64,000 bases of DNA, from NCBI RefSeq assembly GCF_055900595.2, contig NZ_CM148325.1; one strand, 5' to 3'. The notes under the pieces were generated by a model. It was not told where the DNA came from, did not search any database, and saw nothing but the letters and a program-made list of their open reading frames with translations. Position 1 is the stretch's first letter; each line of letters opens with the position of its first letter. The translations under genes were made by a program, and so were the position numbers. This document shows positions 12,150-61,487 of this stretch, piece by piece.

Positions 12150-12728
12150 ATGTCTATACAGAACGAAATGCCTGGTTACAACGAAATGAACCAGTATCTG
12201 AACCAACAAGGGACGGGTCTGACCCCTGCTGAGATGCATGGTTTAATCAGTGGGATGATATGTGGTGGTAACGATGACAGCTCATGGCTGCCGCTGCTTC
12301 ACGACCTGACGAACGAAGGCATGGCTTTCGGTCATGAGCTGGCACAGGCATTGCGCAAAATGCACTCTGCTACCAGCGATGCCCTGCAGGATGACGGCTT
12401 CCTTTTTCAGCTTTATCTGCCTGATGGCGATGATGTCAGCGTTTTCGATCGGGCTGATGCGCTGGCAGGTTGGGTTAATCACTTCCTGCTTGGTCTTGGC
12501 GTTACGCAACCGAAGCTGGACAAAGTGACCGGCGAAACCGGTGAAGCCATCGACGATCTGCGTAACATCGCGCAGCTGGGCTACGACGAAGACGAAGATC
12601 AGGAAGAGCTGGAAATGTCGCTTGAAGAGATCATCGAGTACGTCCGTGTTGCCGCGCTGTTATGCCACGACACCTTTACTCATCCGCAACCGACCGCGCC
12701 AGAAGTACAAAAACCGACTCTACACTAA
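12150..12728 (+). CDS. ygfB: UPF0149 family protein YgfB
   Basis: ORF 12144..12728; the 192-aa protein begins [18 protein letters not shown] at the third codon. Confidence 0.85.
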
Positions 12729-16479: not shown

Positions 16480-16926
16480 AAATTTCTCCTCTGTTGTTTA
16501 TTTGATACCCATCACACTTTCATCTCCCGGTTTTTTCGCCGGGAGATTTTCCTCATTTGAAATAAACTAATTTCACCTCCGTTTTCGCATTATATTTTCT
16601 AATGTCACGAATTTTTGATTTAGTGTTTTTTGACATTTTTTCAGTTCTTAATATTGCCTTATTCAAATTAAGTTTCTCATCACATCATCTTTGTATAGAA
16701 AATGGAATGTTTTTTGGTTTTTTATTCTGTTGTTATTCTGGCGTTTTTTAACCATAAGCTAATGTGATGATCAATTTTACCTTATGGTTAACAGTCTGTT
16801 TCGGTGGTAAGTTCAGGGAAAAGAGAACGATTGCGTTGGGGACCGGGAGTGGCTCCGATGCTGGGTTTCGTGGTGATAATTTCGCCATGGAAAAGTTGTC
16901 AGCCCCGCTTATTCAATGAGGACAAG
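16480..16926 (+). promoter_or_regulatory. gcvTHP control region (AT-rich, no ORF)
   Basis: 447-bp AT-rich spacer upstream of gcvT containing a TTGACA hexamer near 16631; by established knowledge this region carries GcvA/Lrp/PurR/CRP sites in E. coli; individual sites were not mapped here. Confidence 0.4.
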
Positions 16927-34390: not shown

Positions 34391-34638
34391 AATTTCTCAC
34401 ATGTAATTCTAATCACTCATCATTATAGATAATTGAAGAGTGAAATGATTAACCAAGTGAGCGTTTATCGACAACCGCCCGTTTTGAGCGGATGTCGACA
34501 GGTAAAACCATTTAAAAAAGCAGCATCATATATTTGAAGCGACTTTCAATGGCCATTGCAACACAGTCAGAAATGACAGGAATAGAGAGAGTAAAAAGCA
34601 ACAACAGACTGAATATAGCGCGCATTAAAAGATTCATA

Positions 34639-36087
34639 TTATTCTCCATGCTCATTTTTCTTCAGCTTGCGCATCAGAAGCCACATACGTACTGTCCTGA
34701 CTTTTAAATTTTTATCAGAGACGGATTCCTTCACCAGATCAGCATGATGCTGATAGCCATTAAAGAAGACGTTCAGCACAACGGCGCTAAGGGTTGCGAG
34801 CATAATGCCGCTATGCAGCAACGGTTGCAGTACGGCCGGTAACTTAGAAAAGAAATCGTGAGAGAGCGTCGGAGTCATGCCAACGCCGAGACTGATCGCC
34901 ACAATATAGAGGTTGTAACGGTTAGTGGTGTAGTTACAGCGCGACAGAATTCGAATCCCCGTCGCCAGTACCATGCCGAACATCACCAGCCCTGCGCCGC
35001 CAAGCACAAATTGCGGAATCGAGGCTACCAGCACCGCCATTTTGGGCACCATGCCAAACATGATTAATATGATCCCCGAAGAAATACACACCCAGCGACT
35101 ATGAACGCGAGTCACGCTAACCAGGCCAACGTTTTGAGAAAATGACGTGTGGGGGAAGCTGTTAAACGTTCCGCCTATCATTGTCCCTACACCATCGACA
35201 CGCAGCCCGCGAATAATATCGTGCGAAGAGAGTTTACGACCGACTATTTCACCCAGTGCCAGGAACATCCCCATCGACTCGATAAACACGATGATTAACA
35301 CAGCGGTCATGGTTAGAATAGAAACGGGGTCAAATACCGGCATACCAAACGACATTGGGGTGACAATCGCAAACCACGAAGCATCATGTAGCCCGGACAA
35401 ATTGACTTCATTCATCATCCACGAAAGTAAAAAGCCAAATACAATCCCCAGTAATACGGCGACGTTGGACATAAATCCTTTCGCATAGCGAGTAATGAGC
35501 AAGATAAAAATTAAGACGGCAAAGGAGATACCTAAATAAACGGGATTACCATATTGCGGATTCCCTTTACCTCCAGCGGCCCAGTCAATACCGACCTGAA
35601 TAATGCTAAGCCCGATAGAAGTAATAACCACACCGGTAACCAGTGGCGGGAATAAAGGCATTAAGCGACCGATAAGTGGTGCTAATAATGTGGTGATAAA
35701 TCCCGCGGCGATAGTGGCACCAAATATCCCCAGCAGGCCGATATCCGGGTTCATGCCAATGGCTATCATTGGTGTTACAGCAGCAAAGGTTACCGACATA
35801 ATCACCGGCAGACGGATCCCCATAAAGCGGCCGATACCGATACATTGTAATAATGTGACGATCCCGCAGCAAAAGAGATCCGAGCTAATGAGCATCGCAA
35901 TAGCTTCTTTTGAGAGGCCCAGTCGGTCACCAATCATAAGAGGAACAGCGACTGCACCTGCGTACATTACAAGGACGTGTTGCAGACCGAGTATGATCAG
36001 CTTTCCTGGTGATAATATGCGGTCAACCTCATCAGTTGGGCGGTCTTGCCCTGAAGATGAGGGAAGTTGGGAATCTATGGCGCTCAT
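34639..36087 (-). CDS. uacT: uric acid transporter (NCS2/NAT family)
   Basis: ORF 34639..36216; 482 aa beginning MSAIDSQLPSSSGQDRP; polytopic. Confidence 0.88.
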   Translation of the reverse strand: MSAIDSQLPSSSGQDRPTDEVDRILSPGKLIILGLQHVLVMYAGAVAVPLMIGDRLGLSKEAIAMLISSDLFCCGIVTLLQCIGIGRFMGIRLPVIMSVTFAAVTPMIAIGMNPDIGLLGIFGATIAAGFITTLLAPLIGRLMPLFPPLVTGVVITSIGLSIIQVGIDWAAGGKGNPQYGNPVYLGISFAVLIFILLITRYAKGFMSNVAVLLGIVFGFLLSWMMNEVNLSGLHDASWFAIVTPMSFGMPVFDPVSILTMTAVLIIVFIESMGMFLALGEIVGRKLSSHDIIRGLRVDGVGTMIGGTFNSFPHTSFSQNVGLVSVTRVHSRWVCISSGIILIMFGMVPKMAVLVASIPQFVLGGAGLVMFGMVLATGIRILSRCNYTTNRYNLYIVAISLGVGMTPTLSHDFFSKLPAVLQPLLHSGIMLATLSAVVLNVFFNGYQHHADLVKESVSDKNLKVRTVRMWLLMRKLKKNEHGE

Positions 36088-36521
36088 CAGTGTTTCTCCT
36101 TTCGCCCGCCAGAGTAAAAAGCAACCGTTTACGTTATTGAAACTGTCTAAACATATGCTCGTGGAGTGCCAGTTTTTGCGAGGAAGGGGAGTTAGAGACA
36201 GGAATTGCGGAGGCAATCACATAATCGTGGTTAAACCACGAAAATGAGAAGAGAACCTGACAATGGAATTATCTGTAATTTTCTCATATTGATATTTCAT
36301 TAATCATTCTGGCATGTCGCACTCTCGCATTTAATCGTTTTTATCTGGATAGCGCTCTTTTGGTCGGCAATGTTGAAATAATGAAAGCGGCACAGATTGA
36401 GGGGTAATAATTTGAACTTAGTCACAAACTTATAATTAAAAAGTCATTCTACCTAATATATGCCCGTTTATTGCATCGCGAACTTTGAGAAGACATAACT
36501 CATTAAATGAAAGGGATGCAA

Positions 36522-38441
36522 ATGAATAAGTTTATCGCTGCTGAAGCTGCGGAATGTATAGGCTGTCATGCTTGTGAAATTGCCTGTGCGGTGGCACACA
36601 ATCAAGAAAACTGGCCGCTGAGTCACAGTGACTTTCGACCGCGTATCCACGTTGTAGGGAAAGGCCAGGCTGCGAATCCGGTGGCCTGTCATCACTGCAA
36701 CAATGCTCCTTGCGTTACGGCTTGTCCGGTTAATGCTCTGACTTTCCAGCCCGATAGCGTACAACTGGACGAGCAAAAATGTATTGGTTGTAAAAGATGC
36801 GCAATCGCTTGCCCCTTTGGCGTCGTTGAGATGGTCGATACGATTGCGCAGAAATGCGACCTTTGTAATCAGCGCAGTTCCGGCACGCAAGCCTGTATTG
36901 ACGTATGCCCAACACAGGCGTTACGGCTGATGGACGATAAAGGGTTGCAGCAGATAAAGGTGGCCCGCCAGCGCAAAACGGCAGCAGGAAAAGCGTCATC
37001 AGACGCTCAGCCATCTCGCAGTGCAGCGTTGCTCCCCGTTAACTCGCGTAAAGGCGCAGATAAAATTTCAGCGAGTGAACGGAAAACCCACTTTGGCGAA
37101 ATTTATTGCGGGCTGGATCCACAACAAGCGACTTATGAGAGTGACCGCTGTGTTTATTGTGCCGAAAAAGCTAACTGCAACTGGCATTGCCCGCTGCATA
37201 ACGCTATTCCGGATTACATCCGTCTGGTGCAGGAAGGAAAGATTATTGAAGCGGCAGAACTTTGCCACCAGACCAGTTCCTTACCAGAAATCTGCGGCAG
37301 GGTATGTCCACAGGACCGTCTTTGTGAAGGCGCATGTACTTTGAAAGATCACTCTGGCGCAGTCTCTATCGGGAATCTGGAACGCTACATCACCGATACC
37401 GCGTTGGCGATGGGCTGGCGTCCTGATGTCAGCCATGTTGTTCCCCGTATCGAAAAAGTGGCGGTGATTGGCGCAGGGCCTGCAGGGTTAGGGTGTGCTG
37501 ATATTCTGGCGCGCGCAGGAGTTCAGGTTGATGTCTTTGATCGCCATCCAGAAATTGGCGGTATGCTGACTTTTGGCATTCCTCCTTTCAAACTCGATAA
37601 AACAGTCTTAAGCCAGCGGCGTGAGATATTCACCGCAATGGGAATCGACTTTCATCTCAACTGTGAGATTGGCCGCGATATTACCTTTAGCGATTTAACT
37701 TCTGAATATGATGCAGTTTTCATCGGCGTGGGGACTTACGGGATGATGCGAGCAGATCTGCCGCATGAAGATGCGCCCGGTGTCATTCAGGCTCTACCGT
37801 TCCTGACTGCCCATACCCGCCAGTTGATGGGATTGCCGGAGTCTGAAGAGTATCCGCTGACGGATGTGGAAGGTAAGCGAGTCGTGGTATTGGGCGGTGG
37901 CGATACGACCATGGATTGTTTGCGGACTTCCATCCGCCTCAATGCCGCCAGCGTGACCTGCGCGTATCGTCGTGATGAAGTCAGTATGCCGGGCTCGCGC
38001 AAAGAGGTGGTCAATGCGCGCGAGGAAGGTGTCGAGTTTCAGTTCAATGTTCAGCCGCAATATATCGCTTGTGACGAAGATGGGCGTTTAACTGCGGTGG
38101 GCCTTATTCGTACCGCTATGGGTGAGCCGGGTCCGGATGGACGCCGTCGTCCTCGTCCGGTAGCGGGTTCAGAGTTTGAGCTGCCTGCCGATGTTCTGAT
38201 TATGGCCTTTGGTTTCCAGGCGCATGCCATGCCGTGGTTGCAAGGCAGCGGAATTAAGCTCGATAAATGGGGCCTGATTCAAACCGGGGACGTCGGGTAT
38301 TTACCCACCCAGACGCATCTGAAAAAAGTCTTTGCTGGTGGGGATGCAGTTCATGGCGCGGATCTGGTTGTCACTGCAATGGCCGCAGGAAGGCAGGCGG
38401 CGCGCGATATGTTAACTCTGTTTGATACGAAGGCATCGTGA
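36522..38441 (+). CDS. ygfT: Fe-S / FAD-NAD(P) oxidoreductase YgfT (N-terminal 4x[4Fe-4S] ferredoxin module fused to a GltD-like domain)
   Basis: ORF 36507..38441; Cys clusters [37 protein letters not shown] and CDLC, followed by the dinucleotide-binding motif VIGAGPAG. Confidence 0.85.
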
Positions 38442-43266: not shown

Positions 43267-46137
43267 TTATATTTTTTCCAGCGCGGTGAGTATTTTCTCC
43301 GGTGTGAAATGCCATTCGCGTAACCAGATGCCGCAGGCATCGTGAATTGCGGTAGCAATCGCCGGAGCTGCGCCATTTACACCGATTTCTGAGATTGATT
43401 TCGCCCCGAATGGGCCGACTTTATCGTCGCTCGGCACCAGCACAGCGCGGAAATCACGCGGAATGTCACCAATTTTCGGTGCGCCGTAACTGCGTAAATC
43501 ACGCGTTAACGGGTGGCCTTCGGCGTCATAAATGATTTCTTCGCTCATACTGTGCCCGATAGCACGCAGGGTGGCACCGTAGATTTGTCCCAACGCTAAC
43601 TCTGGATTGACCGGTGTACCGCAGTCCAGCAAGGCATAGAATTTATCCAGGCGGATTTCACCCGTACGTGTGTTGACGGCAACTTCAGCAAAGTTTGCGC
43701 CATACGGGAAGGCGAAATCAGGCGTGATATAACTGGCAGTTCCCACCAGTGAACCAAAACCGGTGCCGGTTTCGCCTTTATGGGCAATATCACCGAAACT
43801 AACTTCGCCTTTCTTGCCGCGAACGACACCCGGCGTTGCCAGTTGAACATCCTCCAGGGGTTCCCCCAGCATTTGTGCACCGTGGAACAGGATTTTCTCT
43901 CGGAGATTTTCTGCCGCCATACGCGCCGCGTTGCCGGAGAAACATGTACCGGACGAGGCATATGCGCCTTTATCAAACAGCGCATGATCGGTATCACCGG
44001 AGATAACATGCACGTCCTGCGGTGGGCAGTGCAGCACTTCTGCTGCCAGTTTCGTCACAACCGTATCCAGACCAGTACCAATATCCGCACCGCCAGAATG
44101 AACGATAAAAGTACCGTCCGATTCCAGTTTGATCATGCAGTTAGCCTGATCAATATCCGGGATACCCGATTTCTGCATGATAATGGCGACGCCGCGACCG
44201 ATGTGCCAGTCACCATTTTGCGGTTTTGGTGAAGACCATTGGATCATCTCGCGACCCTGACGCAGGATCTCTTCCAGCGCGCAGCTGGCGGCGGAAGGAA
44301 CGGAGGTCGGCGCTTTACCTTCACCAATCGCACCGAGAATTTTCAGCTCTTGCCCTTCGTGTACCCGATTACGTTCGATAATTTCCAGTTGATCGATCTG
44401 TAACTGTTCAGCCAGTTCCGCTAATGCCATGGTGATAGCGAAGTTACCTTTCGGTGCGCCATAACCCTGATAAGCACCATTTGGGCAAATGTTGCTGTAG
44501 TAGGTGGTGACCTGGAAATCGACGTTATCGCACGGATATAACGGCAGCGACAGCGCCGGTCCGTTACACGGTACGGTGAGTGAGTGGTTGCCGTAAGGGC
44601 CTGTGTTGGCGCGGAAATCCATCTTCACAGCCGTCAGGCGACCATCTTTCTTTGCCCCCAGTTTGACGGTGACTTTCGCGACGTGACGAGAGGTGTTAGC
44701 AATAAACTGTTCTTCACGGGTGTAGCGGAACAGTACCGGACGCCCGGTCACGCAGGTTGCCCAGGCGCACACTTCTTCCAGCAGGATGTCCTGTTTAGAC
44801 CCAAAACCGCCGCCAACTCGCTCTTTAATGACATGAACTTTATGTTGTTTCATGCCCACGAGGCGCGCGACCTGGCGGCGTAAGTGCCATGGTACCTGGG
44901 TGGAGGCGTGGATAACCAGACGATCGCCGTCCATACGGGTAAAGCAGATATGAGTTTCAGTCGGGCATTGCTGCGCCTGAGTTGAGTTATAGGTTCGCTC
45001 AATGATCACATCGGCATCGGCAAAGCCTTTATCCATATCGCCAATATGACCATGAATACTGGCGGCGATATTTTTACGAGGGCGAGAACCGATAGGGAAG
45101 TTGATAATCATATGCTCGCCGCGCTGGGCTGCATGGCTGTTATCGTCTTCCAGAGTGTCTGGCGCACCCGCCACATACACCACCGGTTCATCGTGTACGA
45201 CAGGCGCATCTTCCGCCATTGCCTCGTCAATCGACATTACAGGCTTAAGCACTTCATATTCAACGTCGATGAGCTTCAGTGCTTCGAGCGCAATTTCTTC
45301 ACTTTCAGCGACTACCGCAGCAACGCGATCGCCGACGTGACGCATTTTCTTGCCGAACATACGGCGGTCAAGCGGTGACGGTTCCGGTGCGCTCTGACCA
45401 CCCGGGGTGTAGTAGATATCCGGGCAATTCAGATGAGTAATAACGTGAACGACGCCTGGTAAGGCTTCAGCTTTGCTGACATCCAGGTGAGTAATCAGTG
45501 CGTGAGCGTGAGGGCTACGTAACATTTTAATGACGCAGGCGTCAGCCGTTACGCGGTCTTCAACATAGCAGGGTTTCGCCTGCACCATTTTTGCGGCATC
45601 AGTTTTAGGATAATGCTTACCAATGACTTCAAGGTCATCGCGGAAAGTCGGAGCGATATCAATGGTGGCCTGCGGGTTATTTTTACGTGCAACCGCCAGT
45701 TCAATGACCTGATAGTATTGTTGCCAGCCTGCATCGCGACTGAACAAACCAGAAAGCGCGTCGTCGATCTCTTCGCGGGTCGGTGCGGCGATACGCTCGA
45801 GCAGATCAGTGATAATCAGAGCAGCAGCTGGATCGTTATAACCAGACTGCACCACGCCAACATCAACCATTGCCTGTTGAACCAGACTTAACTCGTTCCA
45901 TTTTCCCAGAGACTCTGCGGTACGAATATTAGCCTTCTCTATCTGTGCGGCAATAAGTAAGGACGCGTTGACGATATTACCGTTAAAGATAATTGCGTCA
46001 GAACCGGCAAAACCGAATCCATCATCGCTGTTGCGTACAGAGTGCATTCCCATGTTAAACAACAGCTTTTGCACGTTTTCACCAGGATTAACGGTTAGCT
46101 CCTGGGGCGTGCCATTTAATGTAAAGTGGATGATCAT
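43267..46137 (-). CDS. xdhD: molybdopterin-containing hydroxylase, large subunit (xanthine dehydrogenase family, with N-terminal 2Fe-2S domain)
   Basis: 956-aa ORF. Confidence 0.88.
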   Translation of the reverse strand: MIIHFTLNGTPQELTVNPGENVQKLLFNMGMHSVRNSDDGFGFAGSDAIIFNGNIVNASLLIAAQIEKANIRTAESLGKWNELSLVQQAMVDVGVVQSGYNDPAAALIITDLLERIAAPTREEIDDALSGLFSRDAGWQQYYQVIELAVARKNNPQATIDIAPTFRDDLEVIGKHYPKTDAAKMVQAKPCYVEDRVTADACVIKMLRSPHAHALITHLDVSKAEALPGVVHVITHLNCPDIYYTPGGQSAPEPSPLDRRMFGKKMRHVGDRVAAVVAESEEIALEALKLIDVEYEVLKPVMSIDEAMAEDAPVVHDEPVVYVAGAPDTLEDDNSHAAQRGEHMIINFPIGSRPRKNIAASIHGHIGDMDKGFADADVIIERTYNSTQAQQCPTETHICFTRMDGDRLVIHASTQVPWHLRRQVARLVGMKQHKVHVIKERVGGGFGSKQDILLEEVCAWATCVTGRPVLFRYTREEQFIANTSRHVAKVTVKLGAKKDGRLTAVKMDFRANTGPYGNHSLTVPCNGPALSLPLYPCDNVDFQVTTYYSNICPNGAYQGYGAPKGNFAITMALAELAEQLQIDQLEIIERNRVHEGQELKILGAIGEGKAPTSVPSAASCALEEILRQGREMIQWSSPKPQNGDWHIGRGVAIIMQKSGIPDIDQANCMIKLESDGTFIVHSGGADIGTGLDTVVTKLAAEVLHCPPQDVHVISGDTDHALFDKGAYASSGTCFSGNAARMAAENLREKILFHGAQMLGEPLEDVQLATPGVVRGKKGEVSFGDIAHKGETGTGFGSLVGTASYITPDFAFPYGANFAEVAVNTRTGEIRLDKFYALLDCGTPVNPELALGQIYGATLRAIGHSMSEEIIYDAEGHPLTRDLRSYGAPKIGDIPRDFRAVLVPSDDKVGPFGAKSISEIGVNGAAPAIATAIHDACGIWLREWHFTPEKILTALEKI

Positions 46138-46963: not shown

Positions 46964-48292
46964 TTATGCCAGCGCATCCATCCGACGCCACATACTGGCG
47001 GCGGCTTTTTGGGCTTGCGCATAAATGGAATCGCAATCGAAGTTAAACTGACGGTCTTCATAGACCATAACGCCATTGACCATCACGCTATGAACGCTGC
47101 CTGAACCCATGCCGAAAGCGATATGTCCAGCGATATTGTCTGCCAGCAGTGGCGTCGGTGAGTTGTAATCGCAAATGGTTAAATCGGCTTTATAACCGGC
47201 TTCAAGAAGGCCAAATTTCGCGCCAAAGTTGCGGCTCATCAGTTCGTTGCCGTTAGCCAGAGCTTTGGCAAAGCTGTCAGGCCACAGCGGACCACCCGCA
47301 TCGCGATGTTTAAAGAAGGCAAATTTCATCTCTTCAAACATGTCCGAACCAATTCCGTCCGTTCCCAACGCCAGATTGCGGATGTCGCAAAGATGATGGT
47401 TGTAGCCGACATGGTTGTTCATGTTTGAACGGGCGTTATGCACCAGGAATGCATCACGCTGATTGAGCAACGCGATGTCGTCTTTAGACAGATAAAGCCC
47501 ATGAGCGACCAGCGTTTTGCTGTCGATGAGATCGAATTGCGCTAATCGTGCCAGCAGATCTTTGCCGTACCAGTGATGACTATGGGAAACATCGTAAAGG
47601 TCTTCCGCAGCGTGAATATGTAAACCACGGCCTGTGGCTTTCACGGCCTCACGCAGCATTTCCAGACCGGCATCCGGCACAGTAAACGGCGCGTGAGCAC
47701 CAATATGAGCCTCTACCAGATACGGTTCAGTTGCCGCTTTCTTCGCATCATCAATCTGACGGGCGAAGCGGATATTTTCCTCTACTCCTTCCTGTAGTTC
47801 TTTAATGCCGTTGTTACGGTCAGTGGTTTCAAAACAGGTCATCGCACGCAGGCCAACTTTTAAAAATGCGTTGCGCAATGTGGAGAGCGACCCGCCGATA
47901 TACGCCGGAGAGGCATGGTGATCGATAACAGATGTACATCCGCTCTTAATCGCTTCCAGGGAACAAATCAGTCCGCTGTAATAGAGAGACTCTTCATCAA
48001 GGGCGCGATCGAGTCGCCACCAGAGATTTTTCAGCGTTGAGATGAAATCCGGGCAGGGGGCGATGTTTGCCATAATTCCACGGGAAAGCCCCGAGTAAAA
48101 ATGGTTGTGCGAGCAGACAATTCCCGGCATCACAATCCGACCATGCATCTCTTTGTAGCTGGCATCGGGGTAGCGTTGCGTCAGAGCATCGCCTATAGCG
48201 ACAATCACATCATTTTCGATGGCGATATCAACGCCTTCCTGCACTTTCGCCGGGTGTAACTGCACTGCGGTGACATTCTTCAGAATCAACAT
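46964..48292 (-). CDS. ssnA: amidohydrolase-superfamily protein SsnA (chlorohydrolase/deaminase-like)
   Basis: 442-aa ORF with an HxH metal-binding motif. Confidence 0.88.
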   Translation of the reverse strand: MLILKNVTAVQLHPAKVQEGVDIAIENDVIVAIGDALTQRYPDASYKEMHGRIVMPGIVCSHNHFYSGLSRGIMANIAPCPDFISTLKNLWWRLDRALDEESLYYSGLICSLEAIKSGCTSVIDHHASPAYIGGSLSTLRNAFLKVGLRAMTCFETTDRNNGIKELQEGVEENIRFARQIDDAKKAATEPYLVEAHIGAHAPFTVPDAGLEMLREAVKATGRGLHIHAAEDLYDVSHSHHWYGKDLLARLAQFDLIDSKTLVAHGLYLSKDDIALLNQRDAFLVHNARSNMNNHVGYNHHLCDIRNLALGTDGIGSDMFEEMKFAFFKHRDAGGPLWPDSFAKALANGNELMSRNFGAKFGLLEAGYKADLTICDYNSPTPLLADNIAGHIAFGMGSGSVHSVMVNGVMVYEDRQFNFDCDSIYAQAQKAAASMWRRMDALA

Positions 48293-51393: not shown

Positions 51394-51473
51394 AACCCTC
51401 TCCTTAGCTTATACAGATATCATTGAGTGACCGGTGTTGAGAAATCCGGTGGTTTAGGGGGATAGAGCAACAA

Positions 51474-51490
51474 TCGCACCACTCTTGCCA
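51474..51490 (-). promoter_or_regulatory. candidate sigma54 (-24/-12) promoter for the ygfK-ssnA-ygfM-xdhD operon
   Basis: Minus-strand TGGCAA-gagtg-GTGC about 83 nt upstream of the ygfK ATG; GG and GC spaced as in the consensus TGGCAC-N5-TTGC. Confidence 0.3.
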
Positions 51491-51714
51491 GGTTTGGCGG
51501 GAAATATAAAAAAATGTGAGGCGGCTCGAAACTTAAGGGCTTTTTGTGAATGAACTCACAGGTGCCAAATGAGAATTAAAATCACTCCTGGAAATTATTA
51601 TTACCAGCCCATTTATCACTTTTTCTCTTTTCTCAAAATCAGTGATTCCTTATCATAATGATAAAGCAGGCTGGATGGTTTAAATATTTGAGCGCAAACG
51701 TTTAACTACGTTTT

Positions 51715-61012: not shown

Positions 61013-61103
61013 AAAGTCCCGGTAGTGGAATGACAGGCAAAGTGGTTTATTTCACTGTGACTTGCCAAAGTGATTGGTGTTTTCACAGCTATACCAGGGA
61101 CTA

Positions 61104-61118
61104 ACAATAAGTGTGCCA
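61104..61118 (-). promoter_or_regulatory. candidate sigma54 promoter for ygeW
   Basis: Minus-strand TGGCAC-actta-TTGT about 90 nt upstream of the ygeW ATG; -24 element perfect, -12 has GT instead of GC. Confidence 0.3.
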
Positions 61119-61487
61119 GAATTATCCACGCGGCTATAAAAGACTAATTTGACGGGTAATGTGTGGTGTAGATCACAAATTGATGCCAGCTTCCGGTTGT
61201 GTGTAAAATACGAAAACGTTTGGCTTTTTTTATTGCGTTGTTTATTTGCTGCTAAGTATCAGAAATAAGATAAAGGGGCAGGCTATCCCTCGTCAGTTTG
61301 ATAAACTCACCGCTGTAATTCTCATATTGATATAGAAATGTGATATCTCTTCCATAATTTCATTAGAAAGTGATAAAAACCTTATGTTTTTATCAAAGCC
61401 AATTTCGCCTGAGTTAATATCATGATGATCTGTGAACCATCAACGTCTTCAATGATCGACTTTTAAGTAAGTCTGGAAGGTAAAGCT

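Follow-up and report, generated by a model that had tools for sequence, protein, structure and literature searches.

The divergently transcribed genes uacT and ygfT of Escherichia coli raise the question of how one stretch of intergenic DNA may direct the expression of a urate transporter on one side and of the ygfT-ygfS oxidoreductase pair on the other. Both genes lie within a 64,000-nucleotide stretch of the E. coli chromosome (contig NZ_CM148325.1 of assembly GCF_055900595.2; hereafter the window), where they are separated by a spacer of exactly 434 bp (Table 1) with a GC content of 38.5%, as compared to 51.3% for the whole window. An earlier note, made from the sequence alone, had described this spacer as an AT-rich divergent control region likely to hold promoters and regulator sites, and had proposed that a lack of conserved blocks in related genomes would speak against this. 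Its coordinates, length, composition and placement between uacT and ygfT were all correct, footprinting across relatives did recover conserved blocks, and two divergent sigma-54 elements, a shared activator motif and a PurR box, all located in such footprints, bear out the description. With a probability of about 0.68, we propose that the spacer is a conserved two-way sigma-54 region in which two promoters, a shared activator block, CRP-like sites and a PurR operator would serve urate uptake by uacT and formate-dependent urate utilization by ygfT-ygfS. The support comes from footprints, from motif matches, from motifs that recur in distant genomes as well as within the regulon, and from the published binding of sigma-54 at the ygfT promoter; the activity of the uacT promoter and the proteins that bind the remaining sites are predicted from sequence.

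The locus is widespread, as a 601-nt query around the spacer was matched in 5,330 of 5,426 complete genomes, with 100% identity in NZ_CP169399.1 and 96-98% identity in about 5,300 others. About 140 of the 5,330 matching genomes did not cover the query in full. In strain 23CRST036 (NZ_AP045808.1; L018) an IS1 element sits 25 bp upstream of ygfT, and a deletion has removed uacT, yqfG, most of idi and almost all of the spacer, leaving ygfT-ygfS without its control region. For phylogenetic footprinting, 11 Escherichia and Citrobacter spacers were aligned. A scan of reference genomes with YgfT provided the spacers of three other Escherichia lineages, one divergent E. coli and two Citrobacter (YgfT 80-94% identical), to which K-12 and three further E. 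coli lineages were added. Half of the spacer columns (50%) were invariant in the 11 genomes, and these clustered as ten runs of 7-15 nt, namely ATGGCGCTCAT (which spans the uacT start codon), TCTCCTT (36095-36101, covering the uacT Shine-Dalgarno sequence), AAAAGCAACCGTTTA, ATGCTCGTGG, TGCCAGTTTT, AATCACATAAT, TTTCTCATATTGATA, TTAATCATT, ATATGCCC and TTTATTGCAT. The predicted sites described below were 78-94% invariant, as opposed to 30-33% in the DNA between the blocks, with one partial exception on the ygfT side.

The sigma-54 promoter of ygfT-ygfS (PygfT) is the element with direct published support. Its 17-mer, TATGCCCGTTTATTGCA, covers the invariant runs ATATGCCC and TTTATTGCAT, has 16 of 17 columns invariant, and is the sequence of site OS32 in the sigma-54 chromatin immunoprecipitation sequencing (ChIP-seq) study of Bonocora et al. 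(2015; PMC4591121), which lists it with FAT 3 and a position-specific scoring matrix (PSSM) score of 4.5, directed toward ygfT and 36 nt from the gene start. The −12 element TTGCA is present, and the −24 element is non-canonical, reading ATGCCC with TG in place of GG; with a matrix built from 49 published intergenic sigma-54 sites, whose training sites score 7.6-20.9, PygfT scored 5.75 bits. A −24 element without GG was also found in a Buttiauxella-like genome (TGTGCAT) and in a metagenome (TGCGCAC), so that ygfT-type promoters with TG or CG for GG are kept across very distant genomes (36459-36475 in the window, 12442-12458 in L022 and 12495-12511 in L023). The potF sigma-54 site TATGCACGTTTATTGCA (OS08) is nearly identical to the ygfT site; both have TG for GG at −24 and both gave weak ChIP signals (FAT 2 and 3, respectively). 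The potF site belongs to another regulon, and the tie between the two is one of sequence resemblance only.

On the opposite strand we predict a second, divergent sigma-54 promoter directed toward uacT (PuacT), which is newly proposed here; a literature search found no paper linking ygfU/uacT to rpoN. PuacT has a perfect −24 element (CTGGCAC), GC at −12 and a 10-bp distance between GG and GC, and spans the invariant runs ATGCTCGTGG to TGCCAGTTTT, read on the minus strand. Conservation is the main argument that it may be a genuine promoter. Fifteen of its 17 columns were invariant, also in Citrobacter R56, where the flanking DNA has diverged, and the variation was limited to position 6 of the −24 hexamer (C/T) and the first spacer base, both of which are degenerate in sigma-54 promoters. 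Another sequence that resembles a sigma-54 element, CTGGCATGTCGCACTCT (36309-36325), was dismissed, having no GC at −12 and not being conserved in Citrobacter R56. On the plus strand, the uacT and ygfT promoter blocks (36150-36169, AACATATGCTCGTGGAGTGC; 36455-36474, AATATATGCCCGTTTATTGC) are 75% alike despite the opposite directions of the two promoters, a likeness that may be due to chance or to a common extra operator, ATATGCNCGT. Elsewhere in the window, the sigma-54 matrix matched within xdhD (ATGGCGCAAACTTTGCT; 43687-43703, minus strand; 16 bits), ssnA (47538-47554, minus strand; 13.6 bits) and ygfB (12339-12355, plus strand; 14.5 bits), and these matches resemble the intragenic sigma-54 sites of Bonocora et al.

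Between the two promoters lies the longest footprint of the spacer, the activator block, in which 29 of 37 columns were invariant. It holds the imperfect palindrome TTCTCATATTGATAT, centered at −143.5 relative to the predicted uacT start and at −197.5 relative to the ygfT start, and an invariant half-site, TAATCAT, 20 bp from the left arm of the palindrome. An exact copy of this 15-mer was found 25 kb away in the ygeW-ygeV spacer (61319-61333), and the window contained eight matches with up to three mismatches, where 1.4 were expected. Its 12-mer core, CTCATATTGATA, also occurs upstream of xdhA, and a perfect palindrome, TTATCATAATGATAA, upstream of ygfK; at both genes a second copy of the palindrome lies 20-21 bp away. 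The centers of these palindromes are at −131 and −152 for xdhA, −202.5 for ygfK and −234.5 for ygeW, and sigma-54 sites were reported at all three genes (OS29-OS31 of Bonocora et al. 2015). A dyad site 80-250 bp upstream, common to the promoters of one regulon, as is looked for in an enhancer, was therefore found. A possible extra half-site, in which ATGAGAA was kept in nine of 11 genomes, is listed in Table 1. Upstream of xdhA (L005, 3705-4119), the sigma-54 start lies 45 nt ahead of the start codon annotated by PGAP, as compared to the 84 nt given by Bonocora et al. for K-12 b2866, which suggests that the start codon was called differently in the two annotations.

The protein most likely to act at this block is YgeV. 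In the window YgeV is intact, with PAS, Sigma54_activat and HTH_8 domains, and ygeV, located 25 kb from the spacer, was the sole regulator gene seen in the purine-catabolism cluster in every genome examined. The YgeV iModulon of PRECISE-1K comprises xdhABC, ygeWXY, hyuA, ygfK, ssnA, ygfM, xdhD, ygfT and uacT, and the iModulon paper cites lower expression of ygfT in a ygeV mutant. In a search of cluster representatives, YgeV relatives of 53%, 51% and 45% identity were recovered, and on the contigs of all three ygeV adjoins a ygeW-type operon and a divergent pair of xdh (minus strand) and a ygfT-like gene (plus strand) is present. On one of these contigs the spacer, almost the same in sequence as that of Buttiauxella sp. 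A111, holds the divergent sigma-54 elements CTGGCACAGCCTTTGCT and, toward the ygfT-like gene, TGTGCATCTTTTTTGCA (without GG), and the palindrome TTATCAAACTGATAA between them. The metagenomic relative carries CTGGCACATCCCTTGCT, TGCGCACGCTTATTGCA and TTATCAAAATGAGAA, and in the third TTATCAGATTGATAG and TTATCATAATGGTGA precede a ygfK-like sigma-54 promoter. When the three genomes were scored with the palindrome matrix, three of four, two of four (three of four if a mis-called ygeV start is corrected) and two of two strong matches, respectively, lay in the spacers with sigma-54 promoters. Seven of the ten strong matches fell in about 5% of the DNA, and shuffled spacers equaled the counts in 0/500, 16/500 and 4/500 trials. 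The palindrome hence co-occurs with the activator gene ygeV across genomes (loci L022/L016, L023/L024 and L025), and its consensus, TT(A/C)TCA-N3-TGA(T/G)AA, is probably the recognition site of YgeV. Two further loci, from Pantoea (L012) and Dickeya (L013), were dismissed as ygfT loci, since the upstream DNA is coding and the match was partial (residues 187-636), consistent with a glutamate-synthase-type paralogue instead of ygfT.

On either side of the activator block, between it and each promoter, lies a CRP-like site. For the core TGTGA-N6-TCACA, the spacer contained two matches, where about 0.2 were expected (28.6 per 64 kb). Site 1, on the uacT side, is formed by the run AATCACATAAT and an invariant TGCGG, has 18 of 22 columns invariant, and is separated from the −24 element of PuacT by DNA that has no indels in the 11 genomes though it is only 30% invariant. 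Site 2, on the ygfT side, has a conserved left half and a variable right half (55% invariant). When the match to the CRP core was assessed at each offset in 12 sigma-54 promoters of this regulon, taken from E. coli and the three distant genomes, −67.5 was the best position, with a mean of 4.58 mismatches versus 7.38 overall (sd 0.52 between positions), more than 5 sd below the mean. Eight of the 12 promoters had no more than four mismatches at exactly −67.5, and E. coli uacT was one base off. According to a recent paper, the ygeV-ygeW spacer has a native Crp site, and glucose represses the pathway. The binding of CRP at the two candidate sites, and its substitution for IHF, would fit this geometry.

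The distances between these elements vary in two of the aligned genomes. In O103:H2 str. 12009 (L021), CRP-like site 1 is set off from the activator block, on the uacT side, by an additional 5 bp, or half a helical turn (alignment columns 203-207), an insertion that could have changed the helical phasing of uacT activation. In Citrobacter R56 (L008) the activator block and the ygfT promoter are 22 bp, or about two turns, farther apart (columns 290-309 and 341-342). A perfect 8+1+8 palindrome, TCGTGGTTAAACCACGA, is located in the gap that separates the activator block from CRP-like site 1. The window strain, K-12, ST131 and strain 3359 all have it in full, but it has decayed in the other clades and in Citrobacter, and only two of its 17 columns were invariant. 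It was rejected as an enhancer or core element, not being kept outside E. coli proper and having no second copy in the window; we take its core, TGGT-N3-ACCA, to resemble operators of the GntR/FadR type.

A candidate PurR operator, ACGTAAACGGTTGCTT, lies in the predicted uacT leader. It includes the invariant run AAAAGCAACCGTTTA, has 14 of 16 columns invariant and matches the 16-bp consensus ACGCAAACGTTTGCGT, a palindrome with a central CG, at 13 of 16 positions; with up to three mismatches, the consensus has only two matches in the window, ACGTAAACGGTTGCTT being one, where 0.45 were expected. With a position weight matrix (PWM) made from the 26 ChIP-chip sites of Cho et al. (2011; PMC3159470), it was the best match in the whole window, ahead of the known gcvT site. 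The same study published PurR peaks for the ygfT and ygfK regions and described a saturating, adenine-dependent PurR region labeled ygfT-ygfS, which, when mapped by means of the OS32 coordinate, corresponds to about 36224-37260 of the window and covers the ygfT half of the spacer. PurR control of the locus is documented in this way, and we infer that the box in the uacT leader may be bound as well. Counting the PurR-like boxes at 36119-36134, 36799-36814, 51692-51707 and 61210-61225, no sigma-54 spacer or operon of the cluster in the window lacks such a box.

Other kinds of signal were looked for in the spacer as well. The Fnr (FNR) consensus had no match with up to two mismatches and the Cra consensus none with up to one, and for IHF the sole spacer match with up to one mismatch overlaps the PurR box, leaving no credible IHF site. 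A permissive Rfam scan of 35500-37100 gave nothing better than E = 0.98, which is chance level, and the folds of the leader RNAs were not more stable than shuffled sequences (z = +1.3 and 0.0), giving no sign of a riboswitch or an attenuator. The spacer holds no feature in the PGAP annotation of the strain or in the K-12 MG1655 record. Mechanical open reading frames (ORFs) of 25-41 aa are present; they were dismissed, being absent or frame-broken in both Citrobacter orthologues, and one of 27 aa simply overlaps the conserved activator block. The statement of the earlier note that the spacer is free of ORFs therefore holds for annotated or conserved ORFs and not for mechanical ones. Among the four motifs that it had suggested scanning for, sigma-54 and PurR were matched, and FNR and Cra came back empty; a purine response, which it had considered possible, is favored by the strong PurR box inside a footprint, and its suggestion of an anaerobic response gains nothing from the FNR scan. 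The CRP-like sites represent a carbon-source input that it had not foreseen.

Taken together, these elements suggest the following model. PygfT and the predicted PuacT would fire outward from points about 290 bp apart. YgeV, an enhancer-binding protein of the PAS/AAA+/HTH_8 type, most likely binds the activator block between them and would loop to either promoter to drive open-complex formation. The complex of cyclic AMP (cAMP) and CRP, bound at about −68 between the activator block and the promoter, would supply the DNA bend and, with it, catabolite sensitivity; this role is proposed because no IHF consensus is present. PurR loaded with hypoxanthine or guanine would block uacT transcription from its box at +12 to +27.

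Several observations weigh against this model. The score of PuacT, 5.6 bits, equals that of the ChIP-proven ygfT site and is not significant, as 135 window positions score at least 6 bits; its −12 region reads GAGCA rather than TTGCA, and it is absent from the sigma-54 ChIP-seq tables and supplement of Bonocora et al. and from the RpoN gSELEX list. One half of CRP-like site 1 (TGCGG) is weak, strains differ in the right half of site 2, the CRP-like site of E. coli ygeW lies at −77.5, one helical turn off, and two of the distant promoters have none. The PurR ChIP-chip interval has its center at the weaker, ygfT-internal site, and about 100 bp separate its end from the uacT-leader box. Lastly, an AT-rich palindrome could belong to another factor, and no study of YgeV binding, nor any tying YgeV to the palindrome, was found in the searchable literature.

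The last point leaves room for an alternative, which we consider unlikely, in which TT(A/C)TCA-N3-TGA(T/G)AA is the operator of another regulator, either a repressor or an AT-rich binder such as Fur or ArcA, and YgeV binds elsewhere, for example at 36201-36225. In our own reading the palindrome does loosely resemble iron-box-like GATAAT repeats, which we count in favor of this alternative. However, the occurrence of the motif follows that of YgeV orthologues and sigma-54 promoters even where the identity of YgeV drops to 45-53%, no other regulator gene was seen in the cluster of any genome examined, and the motif lies 130-235 bp upstream of the starts, often paired 20-21 bp apart, as sites of enhancer-binding proteins do.

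The weak score of PuacT bears on a second alternative, somewhat less probable again, in which ygfT alone is sigma-54-dependent, uacT is transcribed from a weak class I CRP-dependent sigma-70 promoter with the −10 element TATGTT (36155-36150), and the conserved block at 36155-36176 is a site for some other protein. If uacT transcription started at about 36143, CRP-like site 1 would be at about −70.5, near the canonical class I position, and the lack of a listed sigma-54 peak for uacT would be accounted for. Yet this −10 candidate is not conserved, reading TGTGTT in K-12 and TGTCAT in other clades, whereas the invariant bases of the block, TGCCAG and GCTCG, are those of the sigma-54 −24 and −12 elements; moreover, a scan for sigma-70 promoters and terminators found nothing within the spacer, and uacT co-varies with the sigma-54 operons in the YgeV iModulon. 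That the spacer is an ordinary long AT-rich one with ordinary promoters and chance motif matches is very improbable: singly, the consensus scans give about as many matches in the window as chance would, but the footprints are sharply bounded, an exact 15-mer is duplicated 25 kb away, sigma-54 and PurR binding have been published, and the layout recurs in distant genomes.

The proposed bidirectional sigma-54 region is of a known general type. In E. coli, hycA-hypA (FhlA) and zraP-zraSR (ZraR), listed as the divergent sites OS27/OS28 and OS38/OS39 in the sigma-54 ChIP-seq table (PMC4591121), also have back-to-back −24/−12 promoters at a distance of a few hundred bp, and the activator sites in the interval act in both directions. 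In contrast to these, the gene of the enhancer-binding protein is here 25 kb away and not adjacent, the ygfT promoter has no GG doublet, the uacT promoter has no ChIP support, and CRP-like sites take the place of IHF sites. The xdhA, ygeW and ygfK promoters resemble the spacer in having upstream palindromes of the same family, a CRP-like element (at −67.5 or −77.5) and PurR boxes in the vicinity (61210-61225 and 51692-51707); unlike the spacer, they are directed one way and have stronger sigma-54 matches (13.5-16.7 bits versus 5.6-5.8), and the PurR boxes of this group lie upstream, whereas that of uacT is in the leader. Cho et al. (2011; PMC3159470) state that elongation is blocked at purB and purR by PurR bound inside the ORF. 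Like the uacT box, these operators are 16-bp LacI-type palindromes with a central CG that follow the start site; in contrast to them, the candidate uacT box would act on the predicted sigma-54 promoter of a catabolic importer. In addition to the sites of the spacer, Table 1 lists related sites elsewhere in the window. Outside the spacer, PGAP calls in this strain a hypothetical protein of 30 aa that lies opposite to yqfG and overlaps with it (34445-34537, plus strand; 34512-34637, minus strand), at roughly the place where the K-12 annotation has the 23-aa yqfH.

Table 1. Positions of the genes, the predicted or published elements of the uacT-ygfT spacer, and related sites in the window.
Feature	Position	Strand	Details
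uacT	34639-36087	−	start codon ATG at 36087-36085
uacT-ygfT spacer	36088-36521		434 bp
ygfT	36522-38441	+	followed by ygfS
uacT Shine-Dalgarno sequence	36095-36100	−	AGGAGA, 7 nt ahead of ATG
Candidate PurR operator, uacT leader	36119-36134	−	ACGTAAACGGTTGCTT; +12 to +27 of predicted start; 19.0 bits, best PWM match in window
Predicted uacT start	36145	−	12 nt downstream of −12 C; 58-nt leader
Predicted sigma-54 promoter of uacT (PuacT)	36172-36156	−	CTGGCAC TCCAC GAGCA; GG −25/−24, GC −13/−12
CRP-like site 1	36203-36224 (core 36206-36221)		core TGCGG-AGGCAA-TCACA; 2 mismatches; center −68.5 from predicted uacT start
Perfect 8+1+8 palindrome	36225-36241		TCGTGGTTAAACCACGA
Possible extra activator half-site	36244-36250	−	TTCTCAT; inverted repeat with 36281-36290; weak evidence
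Activator block	36278-36314		imperfect palindrome TTCTCATATTGATAT (36281-36295) and half-site TAATCAT (36301-36307)
CRP-like site 2	36411-36426		TTTGA-ACTTAG-TCACA; 1 mismatch; center −67.5 from ygfT start
Sigma-54 promoter of ygfT-ygfS (PygfT)	36459-36475	+	TATGCCC GTTTA TTGCA (TATGCCCGTTTATTGCA); start at about 36486; 36-nt leader
ygfT Shine-Dalgarno sequence	36511-36516	+	AAGGGA, 5 nt ahead of ATG at 36522; conserved
PurR motif inside ygfT	36799-36814	−	GGGCAAGCGATTGCGC; 14.2 bits; outside spacer; published ChIP-chip peak assigned here
Known gcvT PurR site	16821-16836		18.4 bits
ygfK sigma-54 site	51466-51482		site of Bonocora et al. placed in window
ygfK PurR site	51692-51707		16.3 bits; ChIP-supported
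ygeW sigma-54 site	61103-61119		site of Bonocora et al. placed in window
PurR box, ygeW-ygeV spacer	61210-61225		ACGAAAACGTTTGGCT; 17.2 bits; not in ChIP-chip table of Cho et al. 2011

The sigma-54 site of ygfT, the binding of PurR in the region and the co-regulation of uacT and ygfT with the YgeV iModulon have been published. What we add, by prediction, is the sigma-54 promoter of uacT, the putative YgeV palindrome and its conservation, the CRP-like element near −67.5, the conserved −24 element without GG of ygfT-type promoters, and the PurR box in the uacT leader. Divergent sigma-54 promoters that share an enhancer are well known from textbooks, which makes the advance a local and not a conceptual one. 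A broader possibility, which we put forward tentatively and regard as doubtful, is that the YgeV regulon represents a conserved subclass of sigma-54 promoters, in which a CRP-type site at about −67.5 replaces IHF as an obligatory bending co-activator, and whose ygfT-type members bind sigma-54 polymerase weakly and need activator- or CRP-assisted recruitment. Sites for IHF are usual in the place taken here by the CRP-like sites, and sigma-54 promoters are classically held in a pre-bound closed complex, unlike such assisted recruitment.

Together with the neighboring ygeW-ygfK genes, uacT and ygfT are involved in the anaerobic degradation of urate by gut bacteria, a pathway of interest for hyperuricemia and gout. 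The map of the spacer offers sites that can be mutated one by one, which makes the regulation of urate breakdown in the gut open to experiment, and it suggests a reason why laboratory media rich in glucose leave the pathway silent. If the broader possibility of a YgeV subclass of promoters holds, a single 434-bp module would integrate urate/YgeV, cAMP and PurR signals in both directions.

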